Shown here: positions 17,134 to 60,593 of the stretch, in pieces | Position numbering within the stretch: the stretch's first letter is position 1 | Layout of the letters: the number at the start of each line of letters is the position of its first letter | NCBI RefSeq assembly: GCF_964355755.1 | Contig: NC_092673.1 | Coordinates: forward strand, 19,093,648 to 19,157,647 | Length of the DNA stretch: 64,000 nt | Source: Antedon mediterranea | Lineage: Eukaryota; Animalia; Echinodermata | Reading direction: 5' to 3' | Translations under genes and position numbers: made by a program | Notes under the pieces: model-generated | The model's input: only the letters and a program-made list of their open reading frames with translations | What the model was told of the DNA's origin: nothing | Databases searched by the model: none

Positions 17134-19095
17134 TCATCTGTTGCATTTTTTGACTGAGTAAGAGACCTGGTCACTATGTACACACCAGATACTGCAGCCA
17201 CCAACAGCAGTTAATCCATCATATATACAGTAACTACCAACCAGTAATCTAAAAGAGAAAAATGTTTCATAAATCCTCATCTTTTTAGAAATATTCTTGA
17301 GTGCTTTCATTTAAAGTTGTTTTAAAATACTGCAAATGACTACAACAAAAAGCATTTTATAGGTTTTGTAGGAAAAAAGACAAATGATTTCTTACATTTT
17401 GAAACTACATTAGTCTTTGAATAGAAAAACAATGCAATGACTTTAGAAACAAATTCAAATTTAAAGTTTAATACTATACCTTATAACAACTTGCAACGTC
17501 TCTTTTTCTTTCGACTAGAAATAACAAGGTACAATTAAATAATTAAAATTCTAATAAAGTATTAAAATTGTTGTTTCTTTCAACTTGATTGTTTTCAAAC
17601 AATCGTGTTGAAATCGAATAACGTAGACTAGAAAACAGGCTTTAGTTGATTATCACCAGCCCTGTAGTGACCTTGACGAGAGCCACTAGACAGTATTTAC
17701 TTATGCTTTTGGTAATCCTGTCGGCCTTTGTGGGGAGGCAGAGTATAATGTTTTTCTTTTTTATTGATTTTGTTTTCTTTTAATTGTTTTTTATACATTT
17801 TATATGGCAAAATATATGAAATGAAAATAAAAGTTTAATGTATTCTGTAAATCACACACAAAGTGCCAATTTATTAACAAAATTAATTTGATCAAATAAC
17901 AGTACATATGTGGAAAATACTTACCCGCCATGATGCATACCTGAAATAACAACAAAGTAAGCTCATTAAGTAATAGATATGGTGAGAAATAATTAAACAA
18001 TTAAACACCCTAACCCTTAATAAAGTATGAACACAGTTAAACCTAAAACATTTAATAGTATGTTAAAATTAAATAAATTTGATTAAATAAAAAATAAATA
18101 GTTTGGATGTTTGTTGATTTAAAGATGTATTGTCCCCCTGAAAATATTTTTTTTAAATTTTTGTTGTTGAATATGCCATTTTAATGTCACTAATAGTTAT
18201 TGACTTTGACCAAAAATTGGATCGAAAACAAAATTATTTACCTGAAAAAACTGGAAGTTAAAGCAAAAAATGGTCAAATTGGCTGCCAGCCAATGGATTT
18301 TTGGTTGAATTTAACCATTTATCATGTTATTTTATAAGTGAAAACATTATTTTTTCCCGTTTTTTTTCTTCGGAAGTGATTTACTTTTTTAAAACTACAT
18401 AATAACCTATTCAAAGTCTGATTTAATTAATCTTCATTTTTCATGTTTTTGGGGGACAATACGTCTTTAAGTATATGCTATACGATAACTGCTGACTATT
18501 ACATAGAAACATTCATATAAACTTTAAACGAACATTTGTGATAACATTTTGGAAAGTTTAATTATCTAAGCTGATATTGTGTGAACAATAAGCAACAAAC
18601 AGGATTAATGTATAATGTCTACCTGAAAAAGAAATGAATGGAATAGATTTGGAGAAAGTCAAAGAAAAACTTTATTTATTTATTTATTTTAAGGTTGCCT
18701 GATAAATATAGATTTTAATCAATTTAGATTACACCCTACATAAACAACTACAATCACTTAGCATAGAATGGTAATAAAGATTTCTAGTCTATTTTAATAT
18801 TGTATACAAAAACTCCTGGCTAAATATCAACAATAATATATTTTTTTGCTGTAGAGTGTTGCTCTAGTGCCTTGATAGTTACCTTGACATTCACCTGTGT
18901 CAGACGAAAGACCTGCACCTGAAGACACACCTGCACCAGAAGACACACCTGCACCAGAAGACACACCTGCACCAGAAGACACACCTGCACCAGAAGACAC
19001 ACCTGCACCAGAAGACACACCTGCACCAGAAGATGCGCCTGCACCAGAAGATGCGCCTGCACCAGAAGACATACCTATACCAGAAGACATATATA
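17134..19095 (-). CDS. Tentative terminal exons of the Roco gene: (SSGAGV)n exon 18895-19095, micro-exon 17925-17940, last exon 17134-17248
   Basis: Phase-compatible GT-AG boundaries (1-1, 1-2, 2-stop), but the acceptor at 19096 is weak. An alternative terminal exon starting near 19205 is also open. Confidence 0.35.
18123..18466. mobile_element. About 345-bp TTAA-flanked MITE (Kolobok-type AG..CT termini), family A
   Basis: ttaa|agatgtattgtccccc...gggggacaatacgtct|ttaa; related copies at about 27237-27568, 28595-28905, 47563-47872 and 50750-50971. Confidence 0.85.
18910..19090. repeat. 18-bp repeat (cacctgcaccagaagaca)n, about 10 copies, possibly coding SSGAGV on the minus strand
   Basis: Direct periodicity; GC-rich relative to its flanks. 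Confidence 0.9.
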
Positions 19096-20149: not shown

Positions 20150-20686
20150 CATCAATGAAAATCTTCCTAGCTTTTGTCATTCCATTTTGTTCTAAAACTT
20201 TAAGAAACTCAACCAACTTTGTGAAATCCTTATCAATGATCCCTCTATGTTCAAAGTCCATAATCATACTCCAGCTGTCTTGATATGTCTTTACCAATAT
20301 ATTGTTAAATAACCTGGCAAGTTTTGATACTTCATCCTTCGTAAGTTCCACTCCCAGTTGATAAACCTTCTGTCTGAAAGGTGTCAACATTGATACTACA
20401 TGATCCTTAATATCTTCAGAAGGTTGATTCTCAACGTTTGACTGGAAGCCAAATTGCTTGGTTACTGTTATTGTGTCATATAGAATAGTAAGGTTTGATG
20501 GACTCAAACTTCCTGAGGCTCTTAAATCCTGTAGCAGATCCCAAACACTACTAGCTCTTTCCACCTCTACATTCGATTTTGAAAGATGGTCTTTGTATAA
20601 AACTTTCAATATTTTGAGATATCCAAGTCCATCAAACCATGCTGCTGTATCAGTTAACAGTTGCAGGAATTCATTCTCTGAGATTT
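20150..20686 (-). CDS. Tandem death-effector-domain (DED-DED) exon of the Roco gene
   Basis: EFLQLLTDTA..LKILKVLYKD..ERASSVWDLLQDLRASGSLSPSNLTIL followed by PFRQKVYQLGVELTKDEVSKL..DSWSMIMDFEHRGII. The pattern resembles caspase-8/cFLIP tandem DEDs. Phase-1 acceptor at 20687 and candidate donor at 20149. Confidence 0.75.
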
Positions 20687-23600
20687 CTGGAATGAAAAAA
20701 TGAGTATGATACCATCAATATAAGTACACACAAAAAAGTTTGAAATAATGAGAGAGAGGGAGTTCTTCTTAAAGAAATTAGTAGAGTAATAGTATTACCC
20801 AAATTTTATTTATATTAAATTTAACATACCTTGATTTGAACCGGATGTCCCAACATCATCCGCTGTAACAAATGAAATAATGATAAAACAATAATTCATT
20901 CAATACTATATGCTAGGATGCAAGCTATGACAGATCATGTTATCACAAATGTAACTGTTGTTTTATAGGCAACAATTTACTTTTGTGAACACCACATTTA
21001 GCAGGTATTGTCACTGCAGAGTGACATTATTGCTATTATATATTGATTCTGATAGTACTACTACTGGTAAGAGGAATGAAGATATCACAGCTAATAGCAG
21101 CATGTTGTAACAATGTATAGATTATCAATAATGATTCTACTAGTACTACTACTGGTAAGAGGAATGAAGATATCACAGCTAATAGCAGCATGTTATAACA
21201 ATGTATAGATTATCAATAATGATTCTGATAGTACTACTACTGGTAAGAGGAATGAAGATATCACAGCTAATAGCAGCATGTTGTAACAATGTATAGATTA
21301 TCAATAATGATTCTGATAGTACTACTACTGGTAAGAGGAATGAAGATATCACAGCTAATAGCAGCATGTTGTAAAAATGTATAGATTATCAATAATGATT
21401 CTGATAGTACTACTACTGGTAAGAGGAATGAAGATATCACAGCTAATAGCAGCATGTTGTAACAATGTATAGATTATCAATAATGATTCTGATAGTACTA
21501 CTACTGGTAAGAGGAATGAAGATATCACAGCTAATAGTAGCATGTTGTAACAATGTATAGATTATCAATAATGATTCTGATAGTACTACTACTGGTAAGA
21601 GAAATGAAGATATCACAGCTAATAGTAGCATGTTGTAAAAATGTATAGATTATCAATAATGATTCTGATAGTACTACTACTGGTAAGAGGAATGAAGATA
21701 TCACAGCTAATAGCAGCATGTTGTAACAATGTATAGATTATCAATAATGATTCTGATAGTACTACTACTGGTAAGAGGAATGAAGATATCACAGCTAATA
21801 GCAGCATGTTGTAACAATGTATAGATTATCAATAATGATTCTGATAGTACTACTACTGGTAAGAGGAATGAAGATATCACAGCTAATAGCAGCATGTTGT
21901 AACAATGTATAGATTATCAATAATGATTCTACTAGTACTACTATTGGTAAGAGGAATGAAGATATCACAGCTAATAGCAGCATGTTGTAACAATGTATAG
22001 ATTATCAATAATGATTCTACTAGTACTACTATTGGTAAGAGGAATGAAGATATCACAGCTAATAGCAGCATGTTGTAACAATGTATAGATTATCAATAAT
22101 GATTCTGATAGTACTACTACTGGTAAGAGGAATGAAGATATCACAGCTAATAGCAGCATGTTGTAACAATGTATAGATTATCAATAATGATTCTGATAGT
22201 ACTACTACTGGTAAGAGGAATGAAGATATCACAGCTAATAGCAGCATGTTATAACAATGTATAGATTATCAATAATGATTCTGATAGTACTACTACTGGT
22301 AAGAGGAATGAAGATATCACAGCTAATAGCAGCATGTTGTAACAATGTATAGATTATCAATAATGATTCTGATAGTACTACTACTGGTAAGAGGAATGAA
22401 GATATCACAGCTAATAGCAGCATGTTATAACAATGTATAGATTATCAATAATGATTCTGATAGTACTACTACTGGTAAGAGGAATGAAGATATCACAGCT
22501 AATAGCAGCATGTTGTAACAATGTATAGATTATCAATAATGATTCTGATAGTAGTACTACTGGTAAGAGGAATGAAGATATCACAGTTAATAGCAGCATA
22601 TTGTAACAATGTATAGATTATCAACAATGATTATGTTGTACTACTACTGGTAAGAGGAATGAAGATATCACAGTTAATAGCAGCATATTGTAACAATGTA
22701 TAGATTATCAACAATGATTATGTTGTACTACTACTGGTAAGAGGAATGAAGATATCACAGTTAATAGCAGCATATTGTAACAATGTATAGATTATCAACA
22801 ATGATTATGTTGTACTACTACTGGTAAGAGGAATGAAGATATCACAGTTAATAGCAGCATATTGTAACAATGTATAGATTATCAACAATGATTATGTTGT
22901 ACTACTACTGGAAGAGTATTATCAAATATGTCTATTTTCAAATAAGGTACAGTATCCTCTTTTTCTATTCTATAATTATTTAAACATGTCACTTTTTTGC
23001 AGAAATAGGTCACAAATTGTTTATAGAACAGAAATAGCCTTTTGTTTTTCAGTTTCCTGTGCTCTAGGGATGAGTGAGAGTCCTTCATGAAGAAAGTAGT
23101 GTATTAATGAAAATGTACTTAATAAAAATAAATAAATTTAATGACTCTTACCTCCAAACAGCCGCTTGTAACATGTGACATCCATCGTAACAGACTTGCC
23201 AGTTTCTGTGCATGTAAACTTCCTGCATTGGAAATCTTTAAGAATTTGAAAATGCTTTTTGTCTAATTGATCACTACACCGACAAGGAATGCATCTCTTG
23301 AATGGAATCCCTCTTCTACCACCATCTTTAGATTGCTCGAATGCCTTCTCAACTGTTGACAAAACCTAAAGATATAAATTTAATGTTGATTTGAATTTAA
23401 TTGAATTTAACACAAATCATATCAACAAATATGAAAGCATCAATGATGCAGTAGCTTACAAAGTTAGACATTTTATGTAATGTGAGGCAGGCAATGTTTT
23501 CAGATTTATGGTGTAAATCTGAATTGATTGGGAATAAATCTTTTAATAGGCAGATACATATTAAAATTACTTACTAATTCAATTACAAAAATAAAAGAGA

Positions 23601-26600
23601 ACATGGATGTAATTTGTTTACGCTGTTTACGGTTCTACTCCGTGTCCAAAGTTGGATCACCGCCTTTTTAAATGATCTAGCTTCCCGGGCCTAACATTCG
23701 TCACTGATTTACGATGGATAAATTTAATAAAAAATAGGTGTGTTATAAAATAAATAATGAGTGTTTTGTATTCGTTGAATGGAGAGAATATGTTATTCAT
23801 TGACTGCTCTATTTTCGGCTCTGCTTTGTTAAAAATAGTGCAGTCAATCTTTCAACTCATAAAATATTCTTACCATCCATCTCATAAACATTCATTATTA
23901 TACTATACAATGCAATGTTGGAAAGTAATATGTAATTGGTTTTTAAAATCAGTATACATTGTAAATATGCAGACATTTTCAGACATCAAGCAAATCTGAC
24001 AAAAAAATTGAGGAGAAAACTTTTTACATGTATTTTCATAAACTACCTCCAAATAGATAGATAACGTAACTGGTATAGATACATACCAATTTACATGCTT
24101 CAGCTGAAGGCTCCTCTTTACTCGTTTCATCAAAAGAATCTGTTCTTTTAATAGCCATCTAGAAAGTAAAAATAGATGTAATGTTTTGTTATCAGAATTT
24201 AATTTTAGTTTTATATGCATTTAAAGTGGATTCTGACATGACAGATCAGGGAAAGACTAAGCAACAATATTTAACTTTCATAATTTAGTGATATTTATTG
24301 AACATTTGAGATTATATATTACCTTTAACAAGAACTTTCGCTCATCATTCTTAGTAATAAATTTGTCAAGAGACAAAGTCACATGATGATTTTCGTCGAG
24401 GTAAAGTTCTGCATAATTACATGCGAGAATTGGGTTAACTCCTTCCTTTTGAAATTTGTTAAGGAATTCAATAATTAAATACGGAAACAATACGTCTGGC
24501 AGATATCCCTCAAAGTCGTAATAGATAGGTCTGCTGATAGATTGTGAATCATCAGGTACTTGTCTCACTTGACTTGTCTTGATAGCAATTCGCAGTGGCA
24601 CAAAAAAGGATCGTTTTCGAACTGATTTCTGAAATTGTTAATTCGTAACAATGCCATTTAGATTACTTTAAGCAAACTAAAGATACTCTATCATTTAGAC
24701 ATTTTCACTAGAAAGTTTATTCAAACTTTGTCTGAACATTTAAATCCAAACTATTAGAATAATACTTTTTATTCCAAATCTTACATGCATCAAATGAAAG
24801 ATTAAAGAAACATAACCTACTATAGATGTACTTGCCACATCTTGGCTGCTGGTTGTCTTTCTCTCACATATGAAACCGAATTGAATCATCAGTGCTACAA
24901 GGAACTCAAAATTCTTTCCGTCATCAACTTTACTATCTTTCCATAATTTTCGCAACAAGTCTTCTTCCAGTATGCCTTTGTCAAGCTTATCAAAAGATCT
25001 TCTAAATTTAGCGGCCTAAAAAAAACACCAACTATCAAGTATGCGCATCGTATTTTGTGTTTATAACAGTTGTGAGGATGACGGCAATAGATACAGTAAG
25101 CATTTAGAATATAGATGAACCATGTGTTGGTATAATACAGTATCGTGGTTTAACCCTTTCACAGTGCGTAACATTGAGACAGGTGATTTCTAATAAATTG
25201 TAAAAACATACTAAATGAGATCATTTTGTAAATATTTTTGTGGTGGGTAAAAAGTTGGTCTACGGTTTGGAGTAAAAAAATGGTAATTTGCATAGTAATG
25301 ACATCATTACAGAAGACAATATTAAAAAATATAGAGGTCGCTTGTAGTGCAGAAAAATAGTTTTATACCGCACCCGGTAATGATGGTTATATGAAGTTCG
25401 ACGACATGTTTATACCCGGTAATACCGGGTACACGCATTGAAATTAACTGTGAAATTACTCCAAGTTAGTTTGCTTTTCTAGTGCTTCAATTATAATAGA
25501 TTGAAAGCAGAATATTAAAAGTGAAATAATTAAAACTTTAAAAAATTACAGTAAATTACAAATGATGCCTTACAGCATACTTTTATTTTATTTATAGAAA
25601 ATGTTAAGCATCTCTAATAAATTTATCAACTACAAATTCGTTGCTAAAGAATAATAAATTACACAGAACAGGAGTAATTATACTACGGTAACACGTTTTT
25701 ACAATGCAAAACATTTATGAGTATACTTACGGGATATTTTGGGGGAACCACAGTTACAAATTTGGTGACAATTTCAACCAGCCTCATCGGATCTAGCACC
25801 ACTTTATCGCTTAATAATTTGTTGTCAGGCATGTAAACAATTTCACCAAGATCATACAAGAAGTTAAGCAGGCCCGATTTGTTTTTTTCGTCAACAATAC
25901 CATTCTTACTTGTCAGAATTTTGATCTAAAAGAAATAATAATTAGTATTATTCAGAATTAAATAAAAAAATATGAAATTATATTCAGTTTTTGTAACATG
26001 TGGATATTACATGAAAAAATAGTTTGAAATATTGAATTTCAATGGCTAATTACCTTAGTATTTTCAAACACACAATTTATAAATAAAACAATGGCTGCAA
26101 ATATCTGAGATGAAAATATGATTTTGGATATTGTAATCTAATTGGCTATGGACATTTTTTAATTAAAGGGTACTTATATTTAGAATTGTTAACTTTTTTT
26201 TTAGATACTTGATAGAAACTTGCGACTTAATATTTTCAAAAATGTTCTTTTCTGAAAAAAAGAACAATTAACATTTACCTCTTCTAAAGGACACAAAGAA
26301 AAGAAGAGCTGTTTTTGTCCTCTTAGATCATGTAGATCACATCGAAAACGCATCCACTTTAAAGGAAAAGGCTGTTCTAATGCTTTCATAAGTGTATCAA
26401 TAACTTGTTTGAGATCACTAAAGCTCTTATCTGTTGTTGGTTGGCTGTTTTCAATGGCAAAATATTTGTGGTAGACATGATTTCCATATGGTTTTGTTTT
26501 AAGAACATCTTGAATAATTTTAAACACCTTTTCTGCCTGTTTGTAAATAATTTTAATAACAGTTTACGCCTATATCACAATAAGAATGTGTCAATTTGGT

Positions 26601-29600
26601 AATTTATTTAAAGTAATATTTAAAAACAGTTACAACTGCAATGTATCTTTGGTTGTGGCTATTTATAATAATATAGAAACAAAAGAAGTATTAACCTCAT
26701 CATTTTGCTGTTTTTCAGTCCAGCCAAGCTTACCCTTGTGTGTACCCACAATAAGGATAGTTGGTTTGTCAACTTCATTTTCCTCATCTTCTTCCACAAT
26801 ACGACTATGAGAATAAACTGACAGGATGTAAGATAATATGAACTGGAGATTGGTCCAATGATGTTGAAATTTCCTCTGAAAAGAATTACAGAACAATTAA
26901 CCACAGTTAAACTTAAAATGCTTAGTTTTTAAAAACCTTATCTGGAAGGTATGAAATATTAAATCTTTTAAAATAGTCAAACTGTTCTTATAAATTAGAA
27001 GACTTGTTCAATCACAATGCCTTACTGCTGCCATGCTCTAGAAATACTTACTCCAGATGAATCAATGAAAGTAGCAAGATCATCCAAGGGTTTACTGAGA
27101 TCAAACACAACAATATATAGTGCTTGAAGTGTCATGAACATCTGCAAAAATATTTAAGTATTGACTGATTAATATTCTTGAAGGCCTTTTGACAACATAT
27201 GAACAAATATTATTTTTAATTGTATGTGGACCTTAAAGATGTATTGTCCCCCAAAAACATGAAAAATGAAGATTAATTAAATCAGAATTTGAATATTTAT
27301 TTTGTAGTTTTAATAAAGTTAATCACTTCCATTGAAAAAAAAAAACGAAAAAAAATAATGTTTTCACTTATAAAATGACAAAATATAAAAATCCATTGGC
27401 TGGTAGCCAATTTGACAATTTTTTGCTTTAAATTACATTTTTTCAGGTTATATAAATTTTTTTTTTCGATCCAATTTGTGGTCAAAGTGGATAACTATTA
27501 TGTTACATTAAAATGGAATATTAAAAAAAAAATTTTTAAGAATTATTTTTTCAGGGGACAATACATATTAATATAATTCAATTCAATTCAATTAAAAAAC
27601 TTTATTATCCCCATGGGGAAACTCTGTTGGCCTTTTCAAAAGGCCAACAGACTTTCATAAAGGTAAAAGGTAAAGGTATTAATAGTTGTCCTCAAGCTTA
27701 ACTGAAAAGTGAGCTTGACCACTGACACTGACCAACGGCAGCCAGCAGTGAAGCGCCTACCAGATCAGCACAACGGGAGACGTCCAACTATACCTTGGCC
27801 ATACAATCATGTTAGTCTGTACAGAAACCTACTTACCCGATGTAGACCATGGTATATTAATTGCCCCCCATGGTCCCAGATGTTGAATGTTTCTTCCAAA
27901 GTCTCCTCCTTATTTTCCTCAACTTTCTTGATTACATCCTTATCTAATTGTTGATCTGTATCAAATGGAACAGCTTGAGTAGCTGTATCAGTACCTGTAG
28001 TGGAAACAAATTTTTTGGTCATTCCACAAACAGCGTAACAAGCATAATTTTATTTCAAACATTTTAATTCATCATATTTAATCAGTCAGTTAAAAAGTTA
28101 CTATGAGTATAGTTGTCTTCATTATCATCATGAGCTTTCGCACCGGGAAGGTAAGCGAAAGGGGATGGTAGATATGAAAGGATACTTTAATATGTACAAA
28201 CTATTAATCTGCACATTTGTATAAGCCCAGTATATATTTATGTATATTATATAGTAGGTGTAAACTGTGAATTCACTTTGATTCTTCTAGATTCATACAA
28301 AAAAATAAGCATCTTTGTCCCTTTTAAGGTTTTAATTAGGTGTTTTAGAAGTTCATCTTTGTTTAACTTTGCTAACTAAGAAACATGCCCATCAAGCCTG
28401 CATGTACAGCGTCTTTGGACTGTCTAGGAGTGGGATGGCCGCTGCCATGTTTTCTCTAAATTACCGTCACCATAATTGTTACACAGATAGGTTGCCTCTA
28501 AGTTATAAATCTGATAACATAATTTTATACTTCTTTAACTCCATTAAATAGGAAAATCTAATTAATAATCTTATTATTTTAAATAACTATGAACTTAAAT
28601 ATGTCCCCTTGAAAAAATAATTCTTACAATTTTTTTTTAAATATGCAATTTTAATGTCACCTAATAGTAGACCAAAAATTGGATTGAAAAAAAATGTATT
28701 TACCTAAAAAACTGTAATTTTAAGCAAAAAATAGTCAAATTGACTGCCAGCCAATGGGTTTTTGCTTGAATTTAACCATTTATTTTTTGTTATTTTATAT
28801 GTGTTTCCTTTTTTTCTACAGAAGTGATTGACTACAAAATAATCTATTCAAAGTCTGATTTTAATAATCTTTATTTTTCATGTTTTTTGGGGACAATAAA
28901 TGTTTAATATGACAGAAATTGTTAAACTTATTTAGTGCTTTTACTACAAAAATGTAAGAATAATTAGAATTTAAGGTCAAGTTACATACCATCATTGTTG
29001 CCATGGTTATTGTAGTCAACAACAATACCATCCTCATCATCATCATCATCTACAGGTGGTTTCATGTCAATCTGACACATAAAACAAAAACAATATATAG
29101 ATAGAAAAAAGAAATAAATGTTTATTCAAGTTAAATACAGTATTGTTTACAATTTAATATAAGAGAAAACTAATATTATTTACTCTCAAACAAAAAACCA
29201 AATACTTTTTAGAGTAAATTTTAAAAGGATTGAAGCAAAAAAAATGAAATAGCTGCTAATAATGCCTCATTGATTCATTTAGAAAGAAAGCCTAAGTGAC
29301 TGGTTTGCAATAGTCCTGTAGGTGCTACTTTATTCATTACACTATTACTGACATACGTTTACATTTTTCTTTTCTCTCAATTTGTCAGTGACCATTTTTG
29401 TATACTGTTTTGAAGGATTACCTGTAGAGAAAGAGAAAGTGTGTACATATTATTTCAGTACATACGTTCATATGTGACTATACTTTGGATATTTTACTAC
29501 TGTCGAAGTAAAATTACAATTACAGTACATCATCATAAAATGTAACATACAGTAACTTGCGCGTTATAAAGGGATCATAGAGTAACAATTGTGAAAATGT

Positions 29601-35600: not shown

Positions 35601-38600
35601 TGTATTTCCATCCTATTAAAAAAATAGGTTTAGTTACTATTAGTAGTTTTTCAGAAATTATTGATATACAATATAACACACTCTATACTCATCACATACA
35701 TACAGTATTATATCATGTCTCAAACATTTACCATCTAGAGATTGGATGAAAGAGCATCACGTGATAACACGTAGATTTACTATTTTTTAACATTGGTTGT
35801 AAATTAGGACGTGAATAGAAATTACTATTTGCTAATAAATGACATCAACTTGTACAGTGCGCCACCTATAACTCATGTATCCAAACCAAAACTTAAACGC
35901 TGCCGTTTATAGTCTACCGCCTTCAACATTGAAAGATGGGGGAGAGAGAGAGAGATAAATTGAATAAAAGTTTACTTTGGAACAGTAGGTAGATGTGTTA
36001 AAATGTTTGAGCCATAATATAAAACAACAAATAGTTTTACTATAAACTTTCAAAGCAAATAAGATTTGGATACTATCCAGAAACAAATGAAATAGGCCTG
36101 TTAAGTGACAGACCCAATCCTTCAAATTGTGATAACATTCTGAAGAAACTTTGCACAGTTATTCATTAGGGTGTCAAAAATATGAAATGGAAGGGTTGCA
36201 CAAAATTTGGTCAGGGGAAAGCCGCCATTTTGGATTTCAAAATGGCGGACCCAAATTGTTCACTTTTCAGGTATATCTCTGCTAAATAGGCACCTAGAGT
36301 TCTGAATTTAGGTGCAAATTATATGGTAATGGGGTCACCAAAGATATTGGTATAACTAACATTTTAATTGCATGGCGGCCATTTTAGATTTCAAAATGGC
36401 GGACTTAAAATTTTCACTTTTTAGGTATATCTCTGTTAAAGAGGCACCTAGAGTTCTGATTTTAGGTGCAAATTATATGGTAGTGGGGTCACCAAACATA
36501 CTGGTATAACTAACATTTTGATTCCATGGCGGCCATGTTGGATTTCAAAATTTCATTTTTCAGGCATATCTCTGCTAAAAAGGCACCTAGAGTTCTGATT
36601 TTAGGTGCAAATTATATATTAATGGGGTCACCAAACATATTGGTATAACTAACATTTTGATTGCATGGCGGCCATTTTGGATTTCAAAATGGCGGACTTC
36701 AAATTTTCACTTTTCAGGTATCTCTGCTAAAAAGGTACACAGAGTTCTGATTTTAGGTGCCAATTATATGGTAATGGGTAACCAAACATATTGGTATTTA
36801 ACTGACATTTTTATTGCATGGCGGCCATTTTGAATTTCAAAATGGCGAACTAAAAATGTTTCAGTACGGTACCTACAGTTATAATTTTAGGTACAAAGTA
36901 TAATATAGTATTGAGGTCAACAAACATATTGGTATAACGTCTTTGATTGCATGGCGGCCATTTTGAATGTAGCTCAACCCGTACTGGCTTTACACTATTT
37001 GTGTTGTTCATAATTACATGCATTTAACACGGACACTTATTGTAGGTCACATTTTCCCTGGCAACCACACAGCTCTGTGCATCGTAAATCACTCTTTCTG
37101 CATTTACAGCATCCAAGATCACAGTCGGTGTGTCCACAGCGAATTAAAACCTTTGTGACATCTGAAAGTTCCGGCAATGAACTGCAAGCTGGACAAAATT
37201 TGTTGCCGTCCTTCCTCTATCCCCAGTTCGCTGGGTCCTGTTAAACCCAGAATGCATCTAGACAGTCGTACCACTTCCTGGCTTCCGTTTCACATGTTCT
37301 CTTAATGCCGCAGATGTTGGGGGATATTTTCAATAGTCTTTCTCTTGTTGTAAAAAGATATCGTCTTGCATCATTAAATGTTCTGCAGTAGACATAGTTA
37401 CAACAAACTGTTCTAGATAATCTGTGTCTGTTTCACTAACATGCCCTACAGACAATTACATCCTCTCAAAAACTGGAGTCATATATGGCATCTTTTTCAA
37501 AGTCTCGGTAGCCTAAATGTAGCTTTACCTTTTCCTTAAACAGATGAAGTTCTATCACAACCGCTAATGGTATGAAAGAACAAGTAAGCGGCTGATGCTT
37601 GTGATCCAAGAGAAGTAATCTTGTGTATTGAGAAACGGTCTTTTCTACAAGCCAGAAAGTGGTACAACTGTCTAGATGCATTCAGGGTTGAACAGGACCC
37701 AGCAAACTGGGGATGGAGGAAGGACGGCAACAAATTTAGTCCAGTTTGGAGTTCATTGCCGGAACTTTCAGATGTCACAAATCGCTGTGACACACCGACT
37801 GTGATCTTGGACGCTGTAAATGCAGAAAGAGTGATTTATGATGTACAGAGCTGTGTGGTTACCAGGTTTGAGCTACATTCAAAATGGCCGCCATGCAATC
37901 AAAGACGTTATACCAATATGTTTGTTGACCTCAATACCATATTATACTTTGTACCTAAAATTATAACTGTAGGTACCGTACTGAAACATTTTGAGCTTGC
38001 CATTTTGAAATTCAAAATGGCCGCCATGCAATCAAAATGTTAGTTAAATAGCAATATATTTGGTGACCCATTACCATATAATTTGCACCTAAAATCAGAG
38101 CACTGTGTACCTTTTTAGCAGAGATATACCTGAAAAGTTATTGGGGTCCGCCATTTTGAAATCCAACATGCAATCAAAATGTTAGTTATACCAATATGTT
38201 TGGTGACCCCATTACCATAATTATAATTTGCACCTAAAATCAGAATTCTAGGTGCCTTTTTAGCAGAGATATACCTGAAAAGTGAAAATTTGAAGTCCGC
38301 CATTTTTAAATCCAACATGGCCGCCATGCAATCAAATGTTAATTATACCAATATGTTTGGTGACCCCACTACCATATATTTTGCAGGTAAAATCAGAACT
38401 CTAGGTGCCTCTTTAGCAGAGATATACCTGACAAGTGAAAATTTGAGGTCCGCCATTTTGAAATCCAAAATGGCGGCTTTCCCCTGACCAAATTTTGTGC
38501 AACCCTTCCATTTCATATTTTTGACACCCTAATGAATAACTGTGCAAAGTTTCAAAATGTTATCACAATTTGAAGGATTTGCCTAAAATATGCTCCTTAA

Positions 38601-41600
38601 CATGCCTACTATGTATAATCCCTGTACATTACCTTCTTTGCAATGTTGCTGGTGTATAATACTGACAACAAACATTATGTGAAATTGGGTTTTTTTTTGT
38701 CAACCCAAACCATAGCAAAAATTACTGCTAAATAATGTGGTAAATAATCATAAATGTCGACTATTGATAAATGAAAACAAAATATAATATCTTACCATGG
38801 ATCAAATGTAGTATAGTGTCATTAAAATCTACTTACTGTACAATATCAATCACAAAATTTGAACATTAATAATTTAATACATATTTTATAAAATTGTACA
38901 AACAAATGTTTAGATGTTAAACATCATGTATGAGGCCAATATAAGCAGTTAAATGAATTTACATATAAATTTAGGTAATGGGAAATTTCAGTAAATTAAG
39001 TGCAACTTCTAGAATTTTTACTCAATGGTAGAGAAAGTTGGTACATACTTTTGGTACTGATTTTTAACACCCAATGAAGCCATTATCATAATTTAGCTAT
39101 TAAGATATTAGATATTAACGATTAAAACAAATTTAGGTTAAACCATTTTCCTCAATGAAGATCATATCATATCATGAAGCCTGATACCATCCCATCATCA
39201 AATGTACCAAGACAGGAATTTGGTGAACAATACCATGCAATAAACAAAATTAAGCTAATTCTCTGGGTGACAATTATATTTGAATACATAAATTCCATCA
39301 TATCTGTATTCATTTGCTTTGTGTACAGTGCAATTTCAGTTATTTACCAAAATTCATGTATTCGAGAACCATCTGTGGGCACTTACTAGTATATAACATT
39401 TTAACTGGCAACTTTATAGAATCATTTTTTCCAAAAAGTCATAAGATAAGATACGGCACTGTTTGAAAAGAATAATTTCATGTTAAATTTCTTTTTCCAA
39501 TTGCATTGCTCAAACATTTTTAGATTTTGGAAACCACTATGAACTAAACATTATTTACATTTCTCTTCCATTTGTGACAAAATGTTTGCAAAAAAAAAAT
39601 CTGGAAAAGGATCTCTTTAAGGCCATATTCAAACTGTAATTAGCTGGATATACTGACAGAAGTATTTTTTTTTGGAAGGTAAGGGAGGGAGCAGGTTATT
39701 AACAATTACTAATTCTTTTTTATTAAAATCAGATTCTATTAATTTTGTTAACAATAACACAAACATATTTGTTTGCTATTTTATTATTTGTCAACATACT
39801 GTAGTTGTCCAATTTTATTTCATATTTATAATTAATTAGACCATTTTCAATTGTTGTTATCTTTACAGCTACATATGAGCAATATGTATTTATTTTATGG
39901 TAAAAAATATTTAAACAAAATTATACTAATTCACCTGAATATAAAAAATTACAAGTAGATTGTTTTTGTTCATTAAGAAAAAAGATATATGTTATTTGAT
40001 GGATAACTGTATACTTTAAATCAGGAGTGGAACCAGAAATAAACATTATATATAATTGCTCTTTTTGATGACAAATTCAAAATGGAACTGAAATCAGGGT
40101 ACCCAGGAGCGGAACCAGAAATAAACATTATATATAATTGCTCTTTTTGATGACAAATTCAAAATGGAACTGAAATCAGGGTACCCAGGAGTGGAACCAG
40201 AAATAAATCAAAAGCGGGAGCAAAGATTACTTTTGGCTGGGGGTCATTTGCTTTCTGAGCAATTTAGTTTGTTTCAAATGGTTTAAGCACATAACTATAG
40301 TATAGTCAATTTCCAATATACTAATAATCATAATCATGAAGTTTATAAATACTGACAACAGACATTATGTGAAATTGTTTATCTGTAAATAAAAAAAACA
40401 GCAATAATTACAGCTAAATAATGTGGTAAAAATCCTATTTGTTCTTATTGATAAACAAATAGAATGGTTTACTGCAGAGAATGGTAGCCTACTACACTAG
40501 CAAATACCTGTGGATTACCTTATTTTGCAATGTTACTGCAGATCCATTATGCTTTAAGAGACAAGTCACTATATCTAAGGTAGGATTTACTGTACTCAGA
40601 TATTCATGTAATGGAGTGTTCCCATCCTGGAAAGGAATAAAAATAATAAAGTTTATAAATACTGACAACAGACATTATGTGAAATTGGTTTTCTGTCAAT
40701 ATAAACAACAGCAAAAATTACAGCTAAATAATGTAGTAAAAAATCATATTTGTCATTATTGATAAATAGAATGGTTTACTGCAGAGAATGGTAGCCTATT
40801 ACACTAGCAAATCCCTGTGGATTACCTTATTTTGCAATGTTGCTGCAGACGCATTATGATTTAAAAGACAAGTAAGTATATCTAAGGTAGGATTTACTGT
40901 AATCAGATGTACATGTAATGGAGTGTTCCCATCCTGGAAAGGAATAAAAATAATAAAGTTTATAAATACTGACAATAGAAATTATGTGAAATTGGTTTTC
41001 TGTCAATATAAACAGCAGCAAAAATTACAGCTAAATAATGTAGTAAAAAATCATATTTGTCATTATTGATAAATAGAATGGTTTACAGCAGAGAATGGTT
41101 ACCTACTACACTAGCAAATACCTGTGGATTACCTTATTTTGCAATGTTACTGCAGACGCATTATGCTTTAAAAGACAAGTAGGTATATCTAAGGTAGGAT
41201 TTACTTTACTCAGATATACATGTAATGGAGTGTTCCCATCCTGGAAAGGAATAAAAATAATAAAGTTTATAAATACTGACAACAGACATTATGTGAAATT
41301 GGTTTTCTGTCAATATAAACAACAGCAAAAATTACAGCTAAATAATGTAGTAAAAAATCATATTTGTCATTATTGATAAATAGAATGGTTTACAGCAGAG
41401 AATGGTTGCCTATTACACTAGCAAATCCCTGTGGATTACCTTATTTTGCAATGTTGCTGCAGACGCATTATGATTTAAAAGACAAGTAAGTATATCTAAG
41501 GTAGGATTTACTTTAATCAGATGTACATGTAATGGAGTGTTCCCATCTTGGAAAGGAATAAAAATAATAAAGTTTATAAATACTGACAATAGAAATTATG

Positions 41601-44600
41601 TGAAATTGGTTTTCTGTCAATATAAACAGCAGCAAAAATTACAGCTAAATAATGTAGTAAAAAATCATATTTGTCATTATTGATAAATAGAATGGTTTAC
41701 AGCAGAGAATGGTTGCCTACTACACTAGCAAATACCTGTGGATTACCTTATTTTGCAATGTTGCTGCAGACACATTATGATTTAAAAGACAAGTAAGTAT
41801 ATCTAAGGTAGGATTTACTTTACTCAGATATACATGTAATGGAGTGTTCCCATCCTGGAAAGGAATAAAAATAATAAAGTTTATAAATACTGACAACAGA
41901 CATTATGTGAAATTGGTTTTCTGTCAATATAAACAACAGCAAAAATTACAGCTAAATAATGTAGTAAAAAATCATATTTGTCATTATTGATAAATAGAAT
42001 GGTTTACAGCAGAGAATGGTTGCCTATTACACTAGCAAATCCATGTGGATTACCTTATTTTGCAATGTTGCTGCAGACGCATTATGATTTAAAAGACAAG
42101 TAAGTATATCTAAGGTAGGATTTACTTTAATCAGATGTACATGTAATGGAGTGTTCCCATCTTGGAAAGGAATAAAAATAATAAAGTTTATAAATACTGA
42201 CAATAGACATTATGTGAAATTGGTTTTCTGTCAATATAAACAGCAGCAAAAATTACAGCTAAATAATGTAGAAAAAAATGATATTTGTCATTATTGATAA
42301 ATAGAATGGTTTACAGCAGAGAATGGTAGCCTACTACACTAGCAAATCCCTGTGGATTACCTTATTTTGCAATGTTGCTGCAGACACATTATGATTTAAA
42401 AGACAAGTAAGTATATCTAAGGTAGGATTTACTTTACTCAGATATACATGTAATGGAGTGTTCCCATCCTGGAAAGGAATAAAAATAATAAAGTTTATAA
42501 ATACTGACAATAGACATTATGTGAAATTGGTTTTCTGTCAATATAAACAGCAGCAAAAATTACAGCTAAATAATGTAGTAAAAAATGATATTTGTCATTA
42601 TTGATAAATAGAATGGTTTAGAGCAGAGAATGGTTGCCTACTACACTAGCAAATACCTGCAGATTACCTTATTTTGCAATGTTGCTGCAGACGCATTATG
42701 CTTTAAAAGACAAGTAAGTATATCTAAGGTAGGATTTACTTTACTCAGATATACATGTAATGGAGTGTTCCCATCCTGGAAAGGAATAAAAATAATAAAG
42801 TTTATAAATACTGACAACAGACATTATGTGAAATTGGTTTTCTGTCAATATAAACAGCAGCAAAAATTACAGCTAAATAATGTAGTAAAAAATCATATTT
42901 GTCATTATTGATAAATAGAATGGTTTACTGCAGAGAATGGTAGCCTACTACACTAGCAAATCCCTGTGGATTACCTTATTTTGCAATGTTGCTGCAGACG
43001 CATTATGATTTAAAAGACAAGTAAGTATATCTAAGGTAGGATTTACTTTAATCAGATGTACATGTAATGGAGTGTTCCCATCCTGGAAAGGAATAAAAAT
43101 AATAAAGTTTATAAATACTGACAACAGACATTATGTGAAATTGGTTTTCTTTCAATATAAACAGCAGCAAAAATTACAGCTAAATAATGTAGTTAAAATT
43201 TTAAATTTTTAATTTCAATGAAAAGAATTTTTTTAATTATTATGAAAATATATATATATTTTTAATACCTCATTGATAGATGTCACAAGATCTGGCTGTG
43301 TTCTACAAATGTGTTTAATTGTTTGAAAATCATTCCTATGCAAAGCTTCTTCTAATTCGTTCCTGTTTAAATGATTATAAAAGGTTATAATGAACTGTTA
43401 CATTATTTTATGAAAATGACGATTGATGGAAATAATATCATCACTAGAATTTAATTCGTCACTTTGACGAATTATAGGTGATCATTTTTATCATTTTACT
43501 GATATTAATTTTTTTTTTTACATGCACGTACGTTAACATACGATCGGAAAATGTTGATGTATGCCATCCTATTATACGCTTATAGTGCTGAGTTGTGCCT
43601 ATTATATGCCATATACAATAATGTACAGTATATAATGTATATCTATATACAGTGTAGCATAGGTGAAATTATGGGACACATCATGTTCTAATTTTTTGGT
43701 ATGATGGAATTATCAAAATAAACTCGAAATGGCAATTTCGAAAGATAATAAATTGAGCAAATAAATATAAGAATTGGAAGCGAATTTGGCACATAGAAGC
43801 GCTGTGCGCGCTCTTTGAAATTTGTATAACTTTGACGAAAAAGATGAAAAAACTACTTTTTAAATTCAACTGGCCATATGTTAACGTCACAACATCCGAT
43901 AGGCTTGATTTTTATATGAATTCATATCTATATTTCATCAGCTTTCATAATAAATTGTAATCATCAAGGTAACCGTCAATTCTGAAGAGCTGTAAAATAT
44001 TCAAATTTACGGCGAAGGTGAAATTACACGACCTACATTATTCAAGTTTATACGCGTGATGACGTCATCGAAATAAAAATAGTGGGAAATCATGAGAAAG
44101 TCAATTAATTGAGCAATCACATACTAAAATTTGAGCGAAAATCGGGTACAAAATAACAGAGATGCGTTCTATTGAATGTGACAAAATATGACGAAAGAGA
44201 AAAAAAACTTAATTTTAAATTCAAGTGGCCATTCGATGACGTCAAAACATTTTGTACGTACAATGTGTACATGTATTCATATCTACAACTCAATGGCTTC
44301 CAGAATAAGTTAAAAAAATTGGGGGTCATCGTGCATTCTGGAGAATTATTTTCATTTTAAAAATGCCTTATTTTTCACCATTTTCAGAACTTTGATGCAA
44401 TTATTTTGCTCATTTTGTCATTTTGAACCTGCTCGTATAGCGTTATTTTAAGTCGGAACTGACTCAAATTTGGTGAATGTACTAAGGATGGTGAGTAGAA
44501 TGCGATTTGTAAAAAAAAATCGTATTTTTACGCTTTTTAAGTATCGCTTTTTAAGTGGAGCACTGTGGCGCAGTGGTTAGAGCATTGGACTTGCAATCAA

Positions 44601-47255
44601 GAGGTTGTCGGTTCAAGCCCCGGCTTGGTCACTGCAGTGTTGAGTCCTTGAGCAAGATTCTTTATCCACATTGTTCCTCCCCACCCAGGTGATAGAAATG
44701 GGTACCGGTATGTAAAAAAGTACTGGGAAGGTAAATCAGACTCGTTTGTGCGGGAGGAGTGGCGTACCCCCCACAACATACACACTTAGTGGAGTCTGGC
44801 CCAAACGCTATGGAAATGGAGATGGGCACCACGGCCGTTAGCATTAGCTTAGGTTTCGACTTTACCTTTTTTTTTTTTTTTTTTAAGTATCGCGCGCGCA
44901 AAAATTATTTTTTGCGCAGTAATTTTTTGAAAAACGCAAATTCATTGATCAAAACTTAATTTTGAACTTTTTAAATTTTTAAAGAGCGATTTCACGCGCA
45001 TGACCCTACGTACGTATTCGTTTTTTATTTGGTAATATTTTTAGCCTTGACCTGAAGTTTACGTGTAGTGAATTTCATTAATATGTGATAATGAATTATG
45101 GAGATATGATTGATAATGTGATTTCACAAAATGGCGTATAAATGACGTCACGGATGAGTGATCACGCTGAAAAGCTTATTAGGATTAAGTTATATTATTT
45201 GAAAGATACTAGATGGCACGCTCGCTTCGCTCGCGTACCATCTAGGGGTGCTCACAGATGGTTCTCGAATACAGTAGAATCCACGGACGGGGACTTTTTT
45301 GGGACACTAAACAAAAACGGAAGTGTCCCCCTAATTCAGAAATAGAGACAACAAAACCAATACTGGATTCCATAAAGGACAATTAATTTATGTGGATTAA
45401 AGAAATTAGGGAGAAATGGAAATGTATGTACGGGAATTGGGCGGCACGTGGTGGTGGTGATGGAACCGCAGTAATAAAGTTGATTGTATTTATATATTAT
45501 AAGAACCAAACTAAATAAATAGACCTAGACATTCTGCGAAATGGAAATCGGAAATTCAAGCTCCTATTCAGTGAAAAATTAAACTGTAGTCTACCTAAAT
45601 ATTTAGGGCAAATCATCGGTTGTGGTGTTGAAATTCCTGTAAACATTTGTGTGAACCAAACTGGGTCGAATTTCTGTCATGAGTACTGATTTGTTGGCCT
45701 GTGATTTATGACGCCTAAGGGATCTATCTAGACTTATTTTTTAGAATAATGTACGTACCTGTCAGATACAATTGTCTTGTGTCGTATAATAAATAAGTAC
45801 TGTAATAGTTACTGAAGTTACTATTACAATCTCGTCAATGAAAACACGAAAATGTATATGCACTTACTTATGAAAACGTATACAGTATTATACTCAGTTA
45901 TTGAAACAGTATGTTTTAAAAAAAGTTTCGTTTGTCTGTAAAATGATGTAATCAAGCTGTTTACATGAGTCTTAATTTATAAGCACATCAATAATAAAAT
46001 AGTTTATCTATCCTGTAATTGGCGAGATTATGGTCGCTGTTGAATGAAATAAAGCCAATCGGTATCATATTTGTACAGAAACGTTTTCGCGGCCGAAGGG
46101 TGTAACCTAAATTCGTTGTATTATCGTCAAAAACTAACTGTAACTAAACTTACATAGAAAGTAGGGTATCATAAATTTGGCCTTAGCACTCGGGGGAGTG
46201 GCTAAGATGAAGTCCGTGGGACTACTAAATATAAATTGTAATGAACCTCGAGGGACATAAATAGGAATATTTCATGTTTCATTATCAATGTATAATAAAT
46301 GGAAACTGTTTACCGATTCAAATAATAGAAATTGGTTTTTAACATATTCCGAACCTATTGCAAGTTTATTCTCAAAGGGCCCATATATTTACCTACCGTA
46401 TGTGTTAAACCAAGGGCTCATAAATTTACCTACAGTACTTGTGTTAAACCAACTCTGGCAGACTGAGAGATTGGGATGTTCCATTCATCGCAAATCAATA
46501 CATTTGTATAATCGTATATTAAATCTATCAAAATAGTATTTTTTAAAGAAAATCGGCCTGTCTTCAACATTATGATGGTGTACTCTAGCTGTTCAACCGG
46601 TTTTCAGCTATTAAAAACAATTATCGTAGGAGGAGATAGAAAAATGCGAAGCCTCCTCGCATTTTTTTGGCGGGTATTTTTCAAGATGGACATCCATTAG
46701 ACAGTGTATACCACGATCGGAAAACACCCCTATTTGGGGCAAATCGTTGAACCTAAATTCGTTTTAATCGTCAATAACTAATTATCTAACTCAATTTAAT
46801 TAGTAAACAGGGTTACATCAGGCGGTTAAAATCAGTACCGAAAGTACGAACCAACTTTACATACCATCGAGTGAAAATTCTAGAAGTAAGGCGCGATTTA
46901 CCGAATTTTGCCCTTACGTAAATTTATATATAGATTATGAAATTTTGGTAATCATTGACATTAAACTTTTTGAGATAATTGTTACACAAAATAGTGTACA
47001 GAAACAATAACATTAAAGATTTGATACAATAACAATAGCTGATCATTTTATTCTAAATGATCACCTAATTAAATTTGATGAGAATGGGCCCTTTAATTGT
47101 AATATTTATGTCGTAATCTTTTAAGAAAATTTGAAAAGTAATTTTTCTCAAAATAATATCTTAAATTGTTATCTTTTTCATTTAAACTATAAATTAATTG
47201 AAGGTTAATCTGTTTGATTTGAAATAAAAAAAATTAAAAAAACGTACCTTTCCAT
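20150..47255 (-). CDS. Multi-exon kinase-less Roco protein: ankyrin repeats - Roc GTPase - COR - tandem DED (about 1210-1290 aa to the end of the DED exon; 3' end uncertain)
   Basis: Hand-spliced GT-AG exons, phases all compatible, no stops: 47248-47255 (ATG), 43269-43362, nine 108-nt ANK exons in 40519-43082 (two with mutated acceptors), 35528-35612, 31459-31539, 30245-30392, 29755-29840, 29357-29421, 28990-29071, 27837-27994, 27052-27141, 26696-26875, 26279-26536, 25731-25925, 24821-25015, 24323-24628, 24087-24158, 23152-23365, 20830-20862, 20150-20686. Motifs DGNTPLH, GQEGVGKT, TDGI, WDHGGQ, VGTHK, LNFLYDLGEI..VVLDP. Confidence 0.88.
21040..22912. repeat. 88-bp intronic minisatellite, about 21 copies (variant units at the right end)
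   Basis: ORF track repeats every 88 bp; unit gtaagaggaatgaagatatcacagctaatagcagcatgttgtaacaatgtatagattatcaataatgattctgatagtactactactg. Confidence 0.97.
23152..25925 (-). CDS. COR domain exons of the Roco gene
   Basis: LLNFLYDLGEIVY..LSDKVVLDPMRL, GILEEDLLRKLW..FLVALMIQFGFI, FFVPL, YYDFEGYLPDVLFPYLI and the Cys-rich end RCIPCRC are typical COR signatures following Roc. Confidence 0.85.
26279..30392 (-). CDS. Roc (Ras-of-complex) GTPase exons of the Roco gene, with an acidic insert between G2 and G3; the last exon runs into COR
   Basis: G1 LKVIGQEGVGKT (30245-30392), G2 VTDGI (29755-29840), G3 FNIWDHGGQLIYHGLHRMFMTLQALYIVVFDLS (27837-27994 and 27052-27141), G4 ILIVGTHKG (26696-26875), G5-like YFAIEN and PLKW (26279-26536). 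Confidence 0.9.
27237..27568. mobile_element. MITE family A copy (opposite orientation)
   Basis: ttaa|agatgtattgtccccc...ggggacaatacat; the body is the reverse complement of 18123-18466. Confidence 0.8.
28595..28905. mobile_element. MITE family A copy (degenerate)
   Basis: tgtccccttgaaaaaat...ctgccagccaatgg...catgttttttggggacaata. Confidence 0.75.
32700..33900 (+). mobile_element. Degraded non-LTR retrotransposon reverse-transcriptase fragment (RTEX/CR1-like)
   Basis: Frameshifted motifs EQSGFRKGFRTLDNIFILNSII, GIQQGSP, NHLLYAADLLLFA (YADD equivalent), YGSETWG, RSELGR. Confidence 0.85.
36093..38608. mobile_element. Foldback derivative of an Academ DNA transposon
   Basis: TAGG..CCTA termini; inverted arms of about 1 kb with aaaatggcgg subrepeats; internal remnants FFHTISGCDRTSS.GKGK, QDPANWGW..LPEL and CKCRKSDLRCTELCGC. 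Confidence 0.85.
38620..38790 (-). pseudogene. Relic of the 307-bp ankyrin unit with most of the exon deleted
   Basis: ccctgtacattaccttctttgcaatgttgctg joined directly to intronic atactgacaacaaacattatgtgaaattgg; acceptor and TPLH codons are missing. Confidence 0.7.
40021..40206. repeat. About 88-bp tandem duplication, about 2.2 copies
   Basis: caggagtggaaccagaaataaa recurs at about 40022, 40105 and 40186. Confidence 0.8.
40340..43195. repeat. 307-bp tandem repeat, about 9.3 copies (108-nt exon plus 199-nt intron)
   Basis: Exact 307-bp periodicity of 'ggattaccttattttgcaatg' and 'gtgttcccatc'; intronic parts are near-identical between copies. Confidence 0.97.
40519..43082 (-). CDS. Nine tandem phase-0 ankyrin-repeat exons (108 nt, 36 aa each) of the Roco gene
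   Basis: Exons 42975-43082, 42668-42775, 42361-42468, 42054-42161*, 41747-41854, 41440-41547*, 41133-41240, 40826-40933, 40519-40626. Consensus DGNTPLHV[HY]L[IS]KVNPTLDILTCLL[NK]HNASAATLQNK, bounded by tttccag| and |gtaatc. * marks acceptor cag changed to caa. Confidence 0.9.
44557..44884 (+). mobile_element. tRNA-derived SINE, apparently full length
   Basis: A box TGGCGCAGTGG, B box GGTTCAAGCCC, core gtccttgagcaag...cacccagg...aaatgggtacc, tail actttacct(T)n, flanking duplication tttttaagtatcgc. Confidence 0.9.
45208..47070. mobile_element. Possible Helentron-associated/unclassified non-autonomous element
   Basis: 5' hairpin ctagatggcacg..cgtaccatctag and 3' stem-loop tgatcattttattctaaatgatca; no coding remnant recognised. 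Confidence 0.3.
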
Positions 47256-60480: not shown

Positions 60481-60593
60481 ATTATTAGTTTCATTATTTC
60501 TTTTTGTTATTGCAGTCCATTGTTTATTTGCATCGTTATATAATTGCATTAATGTTGAACTATAAACCACTGCAACATCACCTCTACTTTTTC

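Follow-up and report, generated by a model that had tools for sequence, protein, structure and literature searches.

Roco proteins have already been proposed as NLR-like receptors in brown algae, bacteria and placozoans, as set out in the available parts of four accounts (PMC3341825, PMC11378527, PMC8195603, PMC4104024). As described in the portions available, the LRR-ROCO proteins of brown algae, which are candidate immune receptors (Zambounis 2012, PMC3341825; Teng 2024, PMC11378527), are kinase-less, occur in gene clusters, carry one repeat per exon and show exon duplication, broken copies and positive selection. The AP-GTPase (Roc)-COR counter-invader proteins (Kaur 2021, PMC8195603) combine an N-terminal repeat sensor, a Roc-COR switch and a variable C-terminal effector, and the available text explicitly compares them to NACHT/AP-ATPase receptors. 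Architectures in the part of the Fig. 4 source data consulted (PMC8195603) include sponge DED+TRADD-N+Ankyrin+APGTPase+COR+Death and APGTPase+COR+DED+TRADD-N+caspase. The Trichoplax expansion, in the available account (Civiero 2014, PMC4104024), likewise comprises animal Rocos with repeats and CARD or death domains. Invertebrate DED-NACHT-LRR NLRs (Zhang 2008, PMC2575513; Yuen 2014, PMC3879445; available parts) join a DED-pair cassette to a logic of repeat, NTPase and death fold, with effector shuffling. DAPK1 has the order ANK-Roc-COR-death fold, preceded by a kinase. Marin 2008 and Huang 2008 reportedly deal with proteins of cnidarians and amphioxus that contain death-fold domains; some of what follows may be anticipated there.

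The window analyzed here is a 64,000-nucleotide stretch of the feather star Antedon mediterranea (NC_092673.1), and all positions are those of this stretch. An earlier note had read from it a frame-consistent minus-strand CDS of 28 exons (47255..20150), encoding a kinase-less ANK-Roc-COR-DED-DED protein with NLR-like logic. The features of the gene are as follows.

47248..47255, minus strand: coding exon 1, ATG at 47255 (from the rebuild; start as in P0006)
43269..43362, minus strand: exon 2, capping the ankyrin module at its N-terminus (exons 1-2 94% identical to P0006 1-34)
40332..43198, minus strand: tandem array of nine 307-bp units (Pfam Ank and rebuild)
43082, 42775, 42468, 42161 (AA), 41854, 41547 (AA), 41240, 40933, 40626, minus strand: starts of the array exons
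38617..38772, minus strand: eroded tenth ankyrin unit, most of its exon deleted
35528..35612, minus strand: exon 12, C-terminal ankyrin cap ending in phase 1 (caps in P0006/P0024 are similar)
31459..31539, minus strand: exon 13, linker ahead of Roc, starting in phase 1 (also in P0007-P0009)
26279..30392, minus strand: exons 14-21, Roc with an acidic insert (Pfam, motifs)
30245-30392, 29755-29840, 27837-27994 and 26696-26875, minus strand: exons holding the Roc motifs G1 GQEGVGKT, G2 TDGI, G3 WDHGGQ and G4 VGTHKG, respectively
23152..25925, minus strand: exons 22-26, COR domain (Pfam COR-A; P0009 model)
20830..20862, minus strand: exon 27, short phase 1-1 linker (rebuild)
20150..20686, minus strand: exon 28, phase 1-1 tandem-DED cassette (Pfam DED; AF2; same borders in NLR carriers)
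17480..19074, minus strand: probable 3' extension (AG/GT sites and phases fit)
18895-19074 (Ser-Gly-Ala repeat), 17925-17940 and 17480-17514 (TAA stop at 17483-17481), minus strand: exons of that extension

The gene was rebuilt independently, giving an open chain of 28 exons from the ATG at 47255 to 20150, with 1,286 codons and no stops. Donors were GT at 27/27 junctions and acceptors AG at 25/27, including 18/18 outside the ankyrin array. The start methionine is common to the paralogue P0006 (32/34 residues identical). The reported CDS stood as an open chain and required amendment. First, the ankyrin units starting at 42161 and 41547, two of the nine, have AA in place of an AG acceptor; since the AG one base downstream leads to a stop at codon 152, a product of 26 exons with seven ankyrin units is likelier. 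Second, position 20150 is a GT donor and not a stop codon, and the frame continues beyond it, probably, as judged from sequence, through three further exons, with its stop shortly ahead of a decayed membrane-anchor exon. Exon 28 could instead be read through as far as a stop at 20051, adding 33 residues, but this is less likely, because five close carrier copies continue beyond the corresponding border with residues compatible with a phase-1 donor. A candidate exon near 28455 was not retained, since exons 17 and 18 are already in phase when joined directly. Over 19500-34900, contigs of X1, X2 and X4 covered introns in 29, 30 and 29 of 30 bins, so that they behave as DNA; no modelled intron matched any of the 15 contig joints listed of 437.

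No kinase was detected among 2,044 six-frame segments of the window (best E 0.86), using profiles that recovered 8/12 spiked control kinase pieces at E<=0.5. The kinase-less reading held for the window, and six codons 5' of the ATG there is an in-frame stop. NACHT gave no match in six frames of the window, the core being Roc-COR, and LRR gave none in the exons scanned, the repeats being Ank. The gene thus differs from DAPK1 in the absence, within the window, of an N-terminal kinase and in having a tandem DED where DAPK1 has a single C-terminal death domain.

Per-exon Pfam searches returned Ank, split weak Roc matches, COR-A (2.6e-7) and two DEDs (9.8e-11). Roc is followed directly by COR, which starts at the end of the exon at 26279-26536, and G1 (GxxxxGKT), the G2 Thr and G3 (DxxG) are all intact. 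G4 departs from what had been claimed of the G-motifs: VGTHKG does not carry the aspartate that reads guanine in (N/T)KxD, as stated in the available part of PMC7952092, and for this reason the GTPase label and GTP specificity are uncertain and the protein does not class as a guanine-specific TRAFAC GTPase. The last G4 residue among 85 matched motifs was D in 34, G in 17, N in 16 and E in 9. A predicted model of P0009 (95% identical) aligned over ~700 columns with CtRoco and LRRK2 (6hlu/3dpu/LRRK2) at E about 1e-14, pointing to a complete Roc-COR fold. Roc-COR is known to dimerize, whereas NLRs form STAND rings, and the Roc-COR cycle is described in the available part of PMC6337361 as nucleotide-dependent monomer/dimer switching. 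A COR-COR dimer prediction for P0009 385-745, in which the alignment was not used, was uninformative (score 0.00).

The C-terminal DED pair claimed for the gene was upheld by two Pfam DED matches and by the predicted fold. The AF2 model of exon 28 (pLDDT 86) matched the caspase-8 tDED with Z 16.1 over 164 residues (rmsd 2.6, about 20% identity), consistent with two DEDs in a rigid caspase-8-like arrangement; cFLIP and vFLIP were also among the best fold matches. Here the pair is C-terminal and has no caspase domain, unlike in caspase-8. Searching PDB sequences with exon 28 as a single sequence gave no match at E<=1, and the RxDL motif was not present when looked for in the exon 28 sequence.

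Exon 28 is 65-73% identical to the DED pairs of the NACHT-LRR NLRs P0001/P0003 and 79% to that of Roco P0002. Its identity to the sisters grouped with it by Roc-COR core (92-96% identity) is only 20-40% for P0008, P0009 and P0015, and the fourth sister, P0014, gave no BLAST match. Cassette borders are identical in five carrier copies, NLR carriers included, and the most similar DEDs found were in NLRs and other Rocos, in a comparison set without crinoid caspases. In the DED tree, exon 28 and three DED pairs from NLRs share a starred clade (support 100/96). AU tests, run after the tree was seen with labels fixed beforehand, reject a single NLR clade (p 3e-57) and a single core-sister clade (p 1.5e-4). 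The trees reject separate NLR and Roco DED lineages; note that RefSeq models of tandem arrays can be chimeric, so the swap signal among paralogues could be inflated. The proposed NLR-like logic is strengthened in that near-identical DED cassettes occur in this Roco and in A. mediterranea NACHT-LRR NLRs. It is qualified by the absence of NACHT and LRR, by a reversed domain order (the death-fold effector is the cassette of P0001/P0003, but C-terminal) and by the analogy having already been published.

By its relatives, the gene belongs to a Roco family that is expanded in Antedon-like feather stars. Its Roc-COR-DED part is 70% identical to RefSeq P0002 over 888 columns, its Roc-COR core is 95-96% identical to P0008/P0009, and an uncharacterized twin architecture, ANK(8)-Roc-COR-DED2, occurs in A. 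mediterranea RefSeq (XP_071964198.1), a paralogue whose G4 does carry the Asp. Pfam searches of 40 hand-picked relatives found Death, TIR, CARD, caspase, HEPN, GT4 and NACHT, with kinases in only 2, suggesting flanking domains of immune type. Among the 150 best relatives, home-made profiles found no kinase-ANK-Roc-COR-DD protein. Two neighboring features belong to this family.

60594..61093, minus strand: tandem-DED exon of another type, from an upstream paralogue in a tandem cluster (Pfam DED; 68% identical to P0008, 38% to exon 28)
17060..17248, minus strand: decayed exon with frameshifting deletions, related by homology to the membrane hairpin at the C-terminus of paralogues

The decayed exon scored 87 against the P0011 tail, a value reached by 0/539 control windows (maximum 65), and 72 against the P0002 tail (control maximum 71); its match to the P0012 tail was not significant (11/539 control windows). 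This copy has probably lost the membrane anchor of the family, in which case the protein would be soluble.

The ankyrin head is likely spliced to Roc-COR through a predicted junction 35528 -> 31539. Ankyrin modules of the same kind precede Roc in P0006, P0024 and P0070, those of P0006 and P0024 standing before a different Roc-COR subtype, and none of the 13 RefSeq copies of this gene's subtype has ankyrins directly before Roc-COR. In an unlikely alternative, the ankyrins are a separate unit or an orphan that an ANK-Roc-COR gene belonging to the other subtype left behind, and the functional gene starts in intron 12 and encodes a Roc-COR-tandem-DED adaptor or helper that has no sensor. One further feature lies in that intron.

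33570..33659, minus strand: intronic stretch, 97% identical to the first exon of RefSeq models P0008/P0009 (rival 5' end)

P0007 begins with intronic sequence near 32244, and exons 12 and 13 would agree in phase by chance one time in three. Against this, cap exon 12 has a strong donor (9.5) and no stop, the donor at 33570..33659 scores -0.6, compared with 6.6-12.2 for the modelled donors (themselves the training set), and a Roc-COR remnant of the other subtype was looked for between exons 12 and 13 and none was found. RefSeq 5' ends are unreliable, because first exons differ among paralogues and 5/13 models do not contain G1, and the P0008/P0009-type first-exon segment has pLDDT under 50 in the P0009 model. 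No Pfam family was found for the intronic ORFs 33421-33687 and 37588-38040, the former possibly, by resemblance, a LINE remnant.

Each array unit consists of an intron and one 108-nt phase-0 exon encoding one 36-aa ankyrin repeat; one repeat per symmetric exon, in clustered genes, is a trait that the gene shares with the exon-shuffled ROCO receptors of brown algae. Variable sites make up 6.5% of exons and 7.5% of introns. Exonic variable sites are 9 non-synonymous and 3 synonymous (expected synonymous 23%; p 0.71), or 7 and 0 in the first eight units (p 0.16). In these counts the young array gave no signal of selection; positive selection is reported in the available parts of the brown-algal studies (PMC3341825, PMC11378527). 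Among 23 distinct repeats drawn from 5 genes, variation is maximal at positions 11-13 (2.0-2.95 bits). The window also holds many other tandem arrays.

The neutral-looking variation, 19/78 site pairs failing the four-gamete test, the dead acceptors, the eroded unit, the broken membrane exon and the abundance of other arrays would all suit a recent duplicate now decaying within a birth-and-death cluster, its array produced by neutral unequal crossing-over like other intronic tandem repeats and its protein without selected function. We regard this as still less probable, given 1,286 codons without stop or frameshift, intact G1-G3 and AG at all 18 non-array acceptors. Equally improbable is a cFLIP/vFLIP-like brake or decoy capping filaments seeded by cassette-sharing NLRs, or a non-immune scaffold: the tandem DED without a caspase domain, the fold matches and Atlas feature matches for the P0002 DED pair that include cFLIP/vFLIP (0.90) suit it, but a fold match does not distinguish activator from inhibitor and in NLRs the cassette sits at the effector position.

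From the demonstrated parts (open exon chain, Roc-COR and DED homology, cassette sharing and tandem cluster), we favor, at a probability of about 0.5, a kinase-less crinoid Roco with an NLR-shared tandem-DED cassette and a likely ankyrin head, which together make it a likely, putative, intracellular immune or cell-death sensor. In such a sensor, the ankyrin stack would bind a variable ligand via the variable end of the first helix, and binding would shift the nucleotide-dependent Roc-COR monomer/dimer cycle, its GTP specificity uncertain. The tandem DEDs would then cluster and seed a DED filament, in which the partner would be either a caspase-8/FADD-like protein or NLRs and Rocos carrying a near-identical cassette, the output being cell death or inflammatory signaling. 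Direct recruitment of caspase-8 by the DED pair, as the earlier note suggested, is speculation. A broader feather-star kit is doubtful, although less so than the alternatives above: NACHT and Roc-COR would be interchangeable and trade one DED cassette, ankyrin-Roco and NLR would co-polymerize into one common network of DED filaments, duplication and skipping of one-repeat exons would diversify the ankyrin head, and the Roc, lacking its Asp, may work with ATP or with any nucleotide.

The architecture would thus be a variant on the already-proposed Roco immune receptor, set apart from brown-algal LRR-ROCO, as partly consulted, by its animal host, ankyrin rather than LRR exons and tandem-DED effector. 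ANK-Roc-COR-DED-DED is absent among the 11 'APGTPase' rows in the part of the Kaur 2021 source data consulted, Roco-NLR cassette exchange was not found in the available part of that paper (PMC8195603), and neither a DED pair nor one-repeat-per-exon ankyrins were found in the available Trichoplax account (PMC4104024). What appears new is a DED cassette common to Roco and NLR. The Roc-COR immune-receptor idea has so far rested on analogy; a DED exon that moved recently between genes for Rocos and for genuine NLRs within a single animal is direct genetic evidence that either switch can lead to a common output. An animal Roco that is free of a kinase and has DED polymerization as a simple readout may also help to define the role of the Roc-COR cycle, a question still open for LRRK2. 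Immunity in crinoids has barely been studied.

Exons were read on the minus strand by eye and their borders were set by script. The Roco gene is real: from the ATG at 47255 to 20150, 28 exons keep 1,286 codons open, with 27 GT donors and with AG at 25 of 27 acceptors. Pfam, run on 20 gene-related and 2 other segments (exons shorter than 22 residues were excluded), detected Ank, Roc, COR-A and two DEDs exon by exon. No kinase was found anywhere in the 64-kb window. The domain content and the missing kinase of the earlier note are both upheld, and its 28-exon chain needs amendment. Exons 3-11 are nine phase-0 exons of 108 nt, each coding for one ankyrin repeat, as in the one-repeat exons of brown-algal LRR-ROCOs, and each housed in a 307-bp tandem unit (~95% identity); a tenth, eroded unit is also present. 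In units four and six the acceptor reads AA. Because the next AG shifts the frame into a stop at codon 152, skipping of both units is likelier, giving 26 exons and 1,214 codons to 20150. The coding sequence had also been taken to end at 20150, which is a donor site and not a stop; three more exons in compatible phase probably carry the frame to a TAA at 17483 (1,362 or 1,290 codons). Beyond it lies a frameshifted relic of the exon for the C-terminal membrane hairpin of paralogues P0002, P0006, P0011, P0012 and P0016 (P-numbers denote database protein relatives), and this relic outscored all 539 control windows for two of the three paralogue tails tested. This copy therefore appears to have lost its membrane anchor.

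The weakest step of the architecture is the splicing of the ankyrin head to Roc, to which we assign a probability of about 0.7. The splice sites are strong and phase-matched, the cap exon (exon 12) has no stop, and the same ankyrin module precedes Roc in P0006, P0024 and P0070, although the Roc-COR subtype differs in these three and the RefSeq starts of the closest paralogues fall in sequence equal to intron 12 here. Across five genes, the most variable repeat positions are 11-13, at the end of the first helix, which contributes to the surface by which ankyrins bind. Variation inside the gene's own array looks neutral and recombined. Local tandem expansion is common in the window, and an adaptive reading of the array is therefore tempered.

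Other features of the window
249-2076: ORF with P2RX7_C (1019-1459, minus; E 4.9e-11) opposite an unassigned ORF (249-737, plus), resembling a KolobokP-type transposon
12332-16648, 21040-22916, 47911-48373, 55801-57565 and 59581-60481: young tandem arrays, numerous in the window (38-88 bp units, 93-99% identity)
about 36170-38530, intron 11: insertion bounded by matching inverted ends and containing 153-bp repeats, probably a DNA transposon
49676-49723, minus: probably the last exon of the Roco gene upstream, judging by 14 of 16 identities to the C-terminal 16 residues of P0012, a paralogue
58242-58948, plus: LINE fragment, zf-RVT
60594-61093: DED exon of the upstream paralogue

The predicted fold of exon 28 (pLDDT 86, 10-row alignment) aligned with the tandem DED of caspase-8 along 164 residues (Z 16.1, rmsd 2.6); all top nine structural matches were tandem DEDs, and Foldseek concurred. 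The predicted model of P0009, whose core is 95% identical to that of the gene, is a complete Roc-COR. Of the claimed GTPase switch, motifs G1-G3 are intact, but G4 reads VGTHKG. It lacks the guanine-specifying Asp (PMC7952092), as do all members of this Roc-COR subtype and 51 of the 85 matched motifs, so “GTPase” should be considered an assumption.

Exon 28 has phase 1-1 and appears to be a cassette exchanged between Roco and NLR genes. Its best database relatives include the NACHT-LRR NLRs P0001 and P0003, in which the similar block has the same start and end residues; P0001 carries two, head to tail. The Roc-COR core clusters with P0008, P0009, P0014 and P0015 at 92-96% identity (quick tree, 21 rows), and the DED pairs of these sisters split over two clades other than that of exon 28. 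In the DED tree (25 rows: every DED pair of at least 120 residues in P0001-P0024, P0026 and P0070, plus two window exons), exon 28 lies beside P0002, P0004 and three NLR copies. AU tests rejected both an NLR-only clade and a core-sister clade. The paralogue gene models could be chimeric; in the window DNA the COR and DED exons adjoin. A 724-nt contig of sequencing run X1 (record 1) matches exon 28 at 20421-20685 with 7 differences, the match ending at the exon acceptor; the contig is perhaps another cassette-bearing locus or a spliced molecule.

The nearest relatives are uncharacterised RefSeq proteins from the feather stars Antedon mediterranea and Anneissia japonica, and one 36-Mb Antedon contig carries 13 of 19 Roc-COR hits. 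Searching 1.84 billion representatives with a profile yielded 436 matches at 1e-30. Among the best 150, home-made profiles, which are less sensitive than Pfam to distant DED and Death domains and overlook some of them, found Roc and COR in 111, with ankyrins added in 9, DEDs in 15 and both in one, P0024 (XP_071964198.1), whose order is ANK(8)-Roc-COR-linker-DED-DED and whose repeats are of the type found in the gene. Pfam was applied to 40 of the 144 new matches, picked for long flanks; these included ANK-Roc-COR-Death in hemichordate and amphioxus, fusions with Neuralized (Neuralized-Roc-COR-Death-TIR), caspase, HEPN, GT4, OTU, Macro and NACHT, and kinases in only two. From such sequence comparisons, the gene falls into a broad group of invertebrate Rocos that bear immune-type flanks and mostly lack a kinase.

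Among the Roc-COR relatives, CBP/p300-type N-terminal domains occur on P0150 (XP_071945975.1; TAZ and KIX), an Antedon protein with a C-terminal DED pair, P0170 (TAZ) and P0253 (Creb_binding). Plant NLRs carry integrated decoys, which these N-termini could resemble, or they could be gene-model fusions. P0006, a single predicted A. mediterranea protein, starts with the ankyrin head of the gene, there of only two repeats, continues with two Roc-COR modules that differ in subtype, and ends in a membrane segment. NACHT is fused to Roc in P0281 (Montipora coral), and caspase domains to Roc-COR in P0242 and P0256.

In listings and abstract openings of the openly searchable literature, no paper on ANK-Roc-COR-DED-DED or crinoid Rocos appeared. 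Rocos as immune receptors have been proposed in brown algae, bacteria and placozoans (PMC3341825, PMC11378527, PMC8195603, PMC4104024). Rows listed in the source data of Kaur 2021 (PMC8195603) include sponge Roc-COR-DED and ANK-Roc-COR-Death fusions; Roc-COR-TIR/Death is reported in Aplysia and anemones (PMC9334734, PMC5094078). One supplement of Teng 2024 (PMC11378527) mentions neither DED nor crinoid, and extracts of PMC11507063 and PMC6321704 had nothing to add.

Most likely, the gene encodes a soluble sensor-switch-effector protein, for which we infer four steps. The ankyrins would bind a ligand, Roc-COR would shift its monomer/dimer state with nucleotide (such a change is described in PMC6337361), the tandem DEDs would cluster, and a filament would form with caspase-8/FADD-like proteins or with cassette-sharing NLRs. 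The product is not a DAPK1 member. As the earlier note proposed, it may work like an NLR, yet by class it is a Roco.
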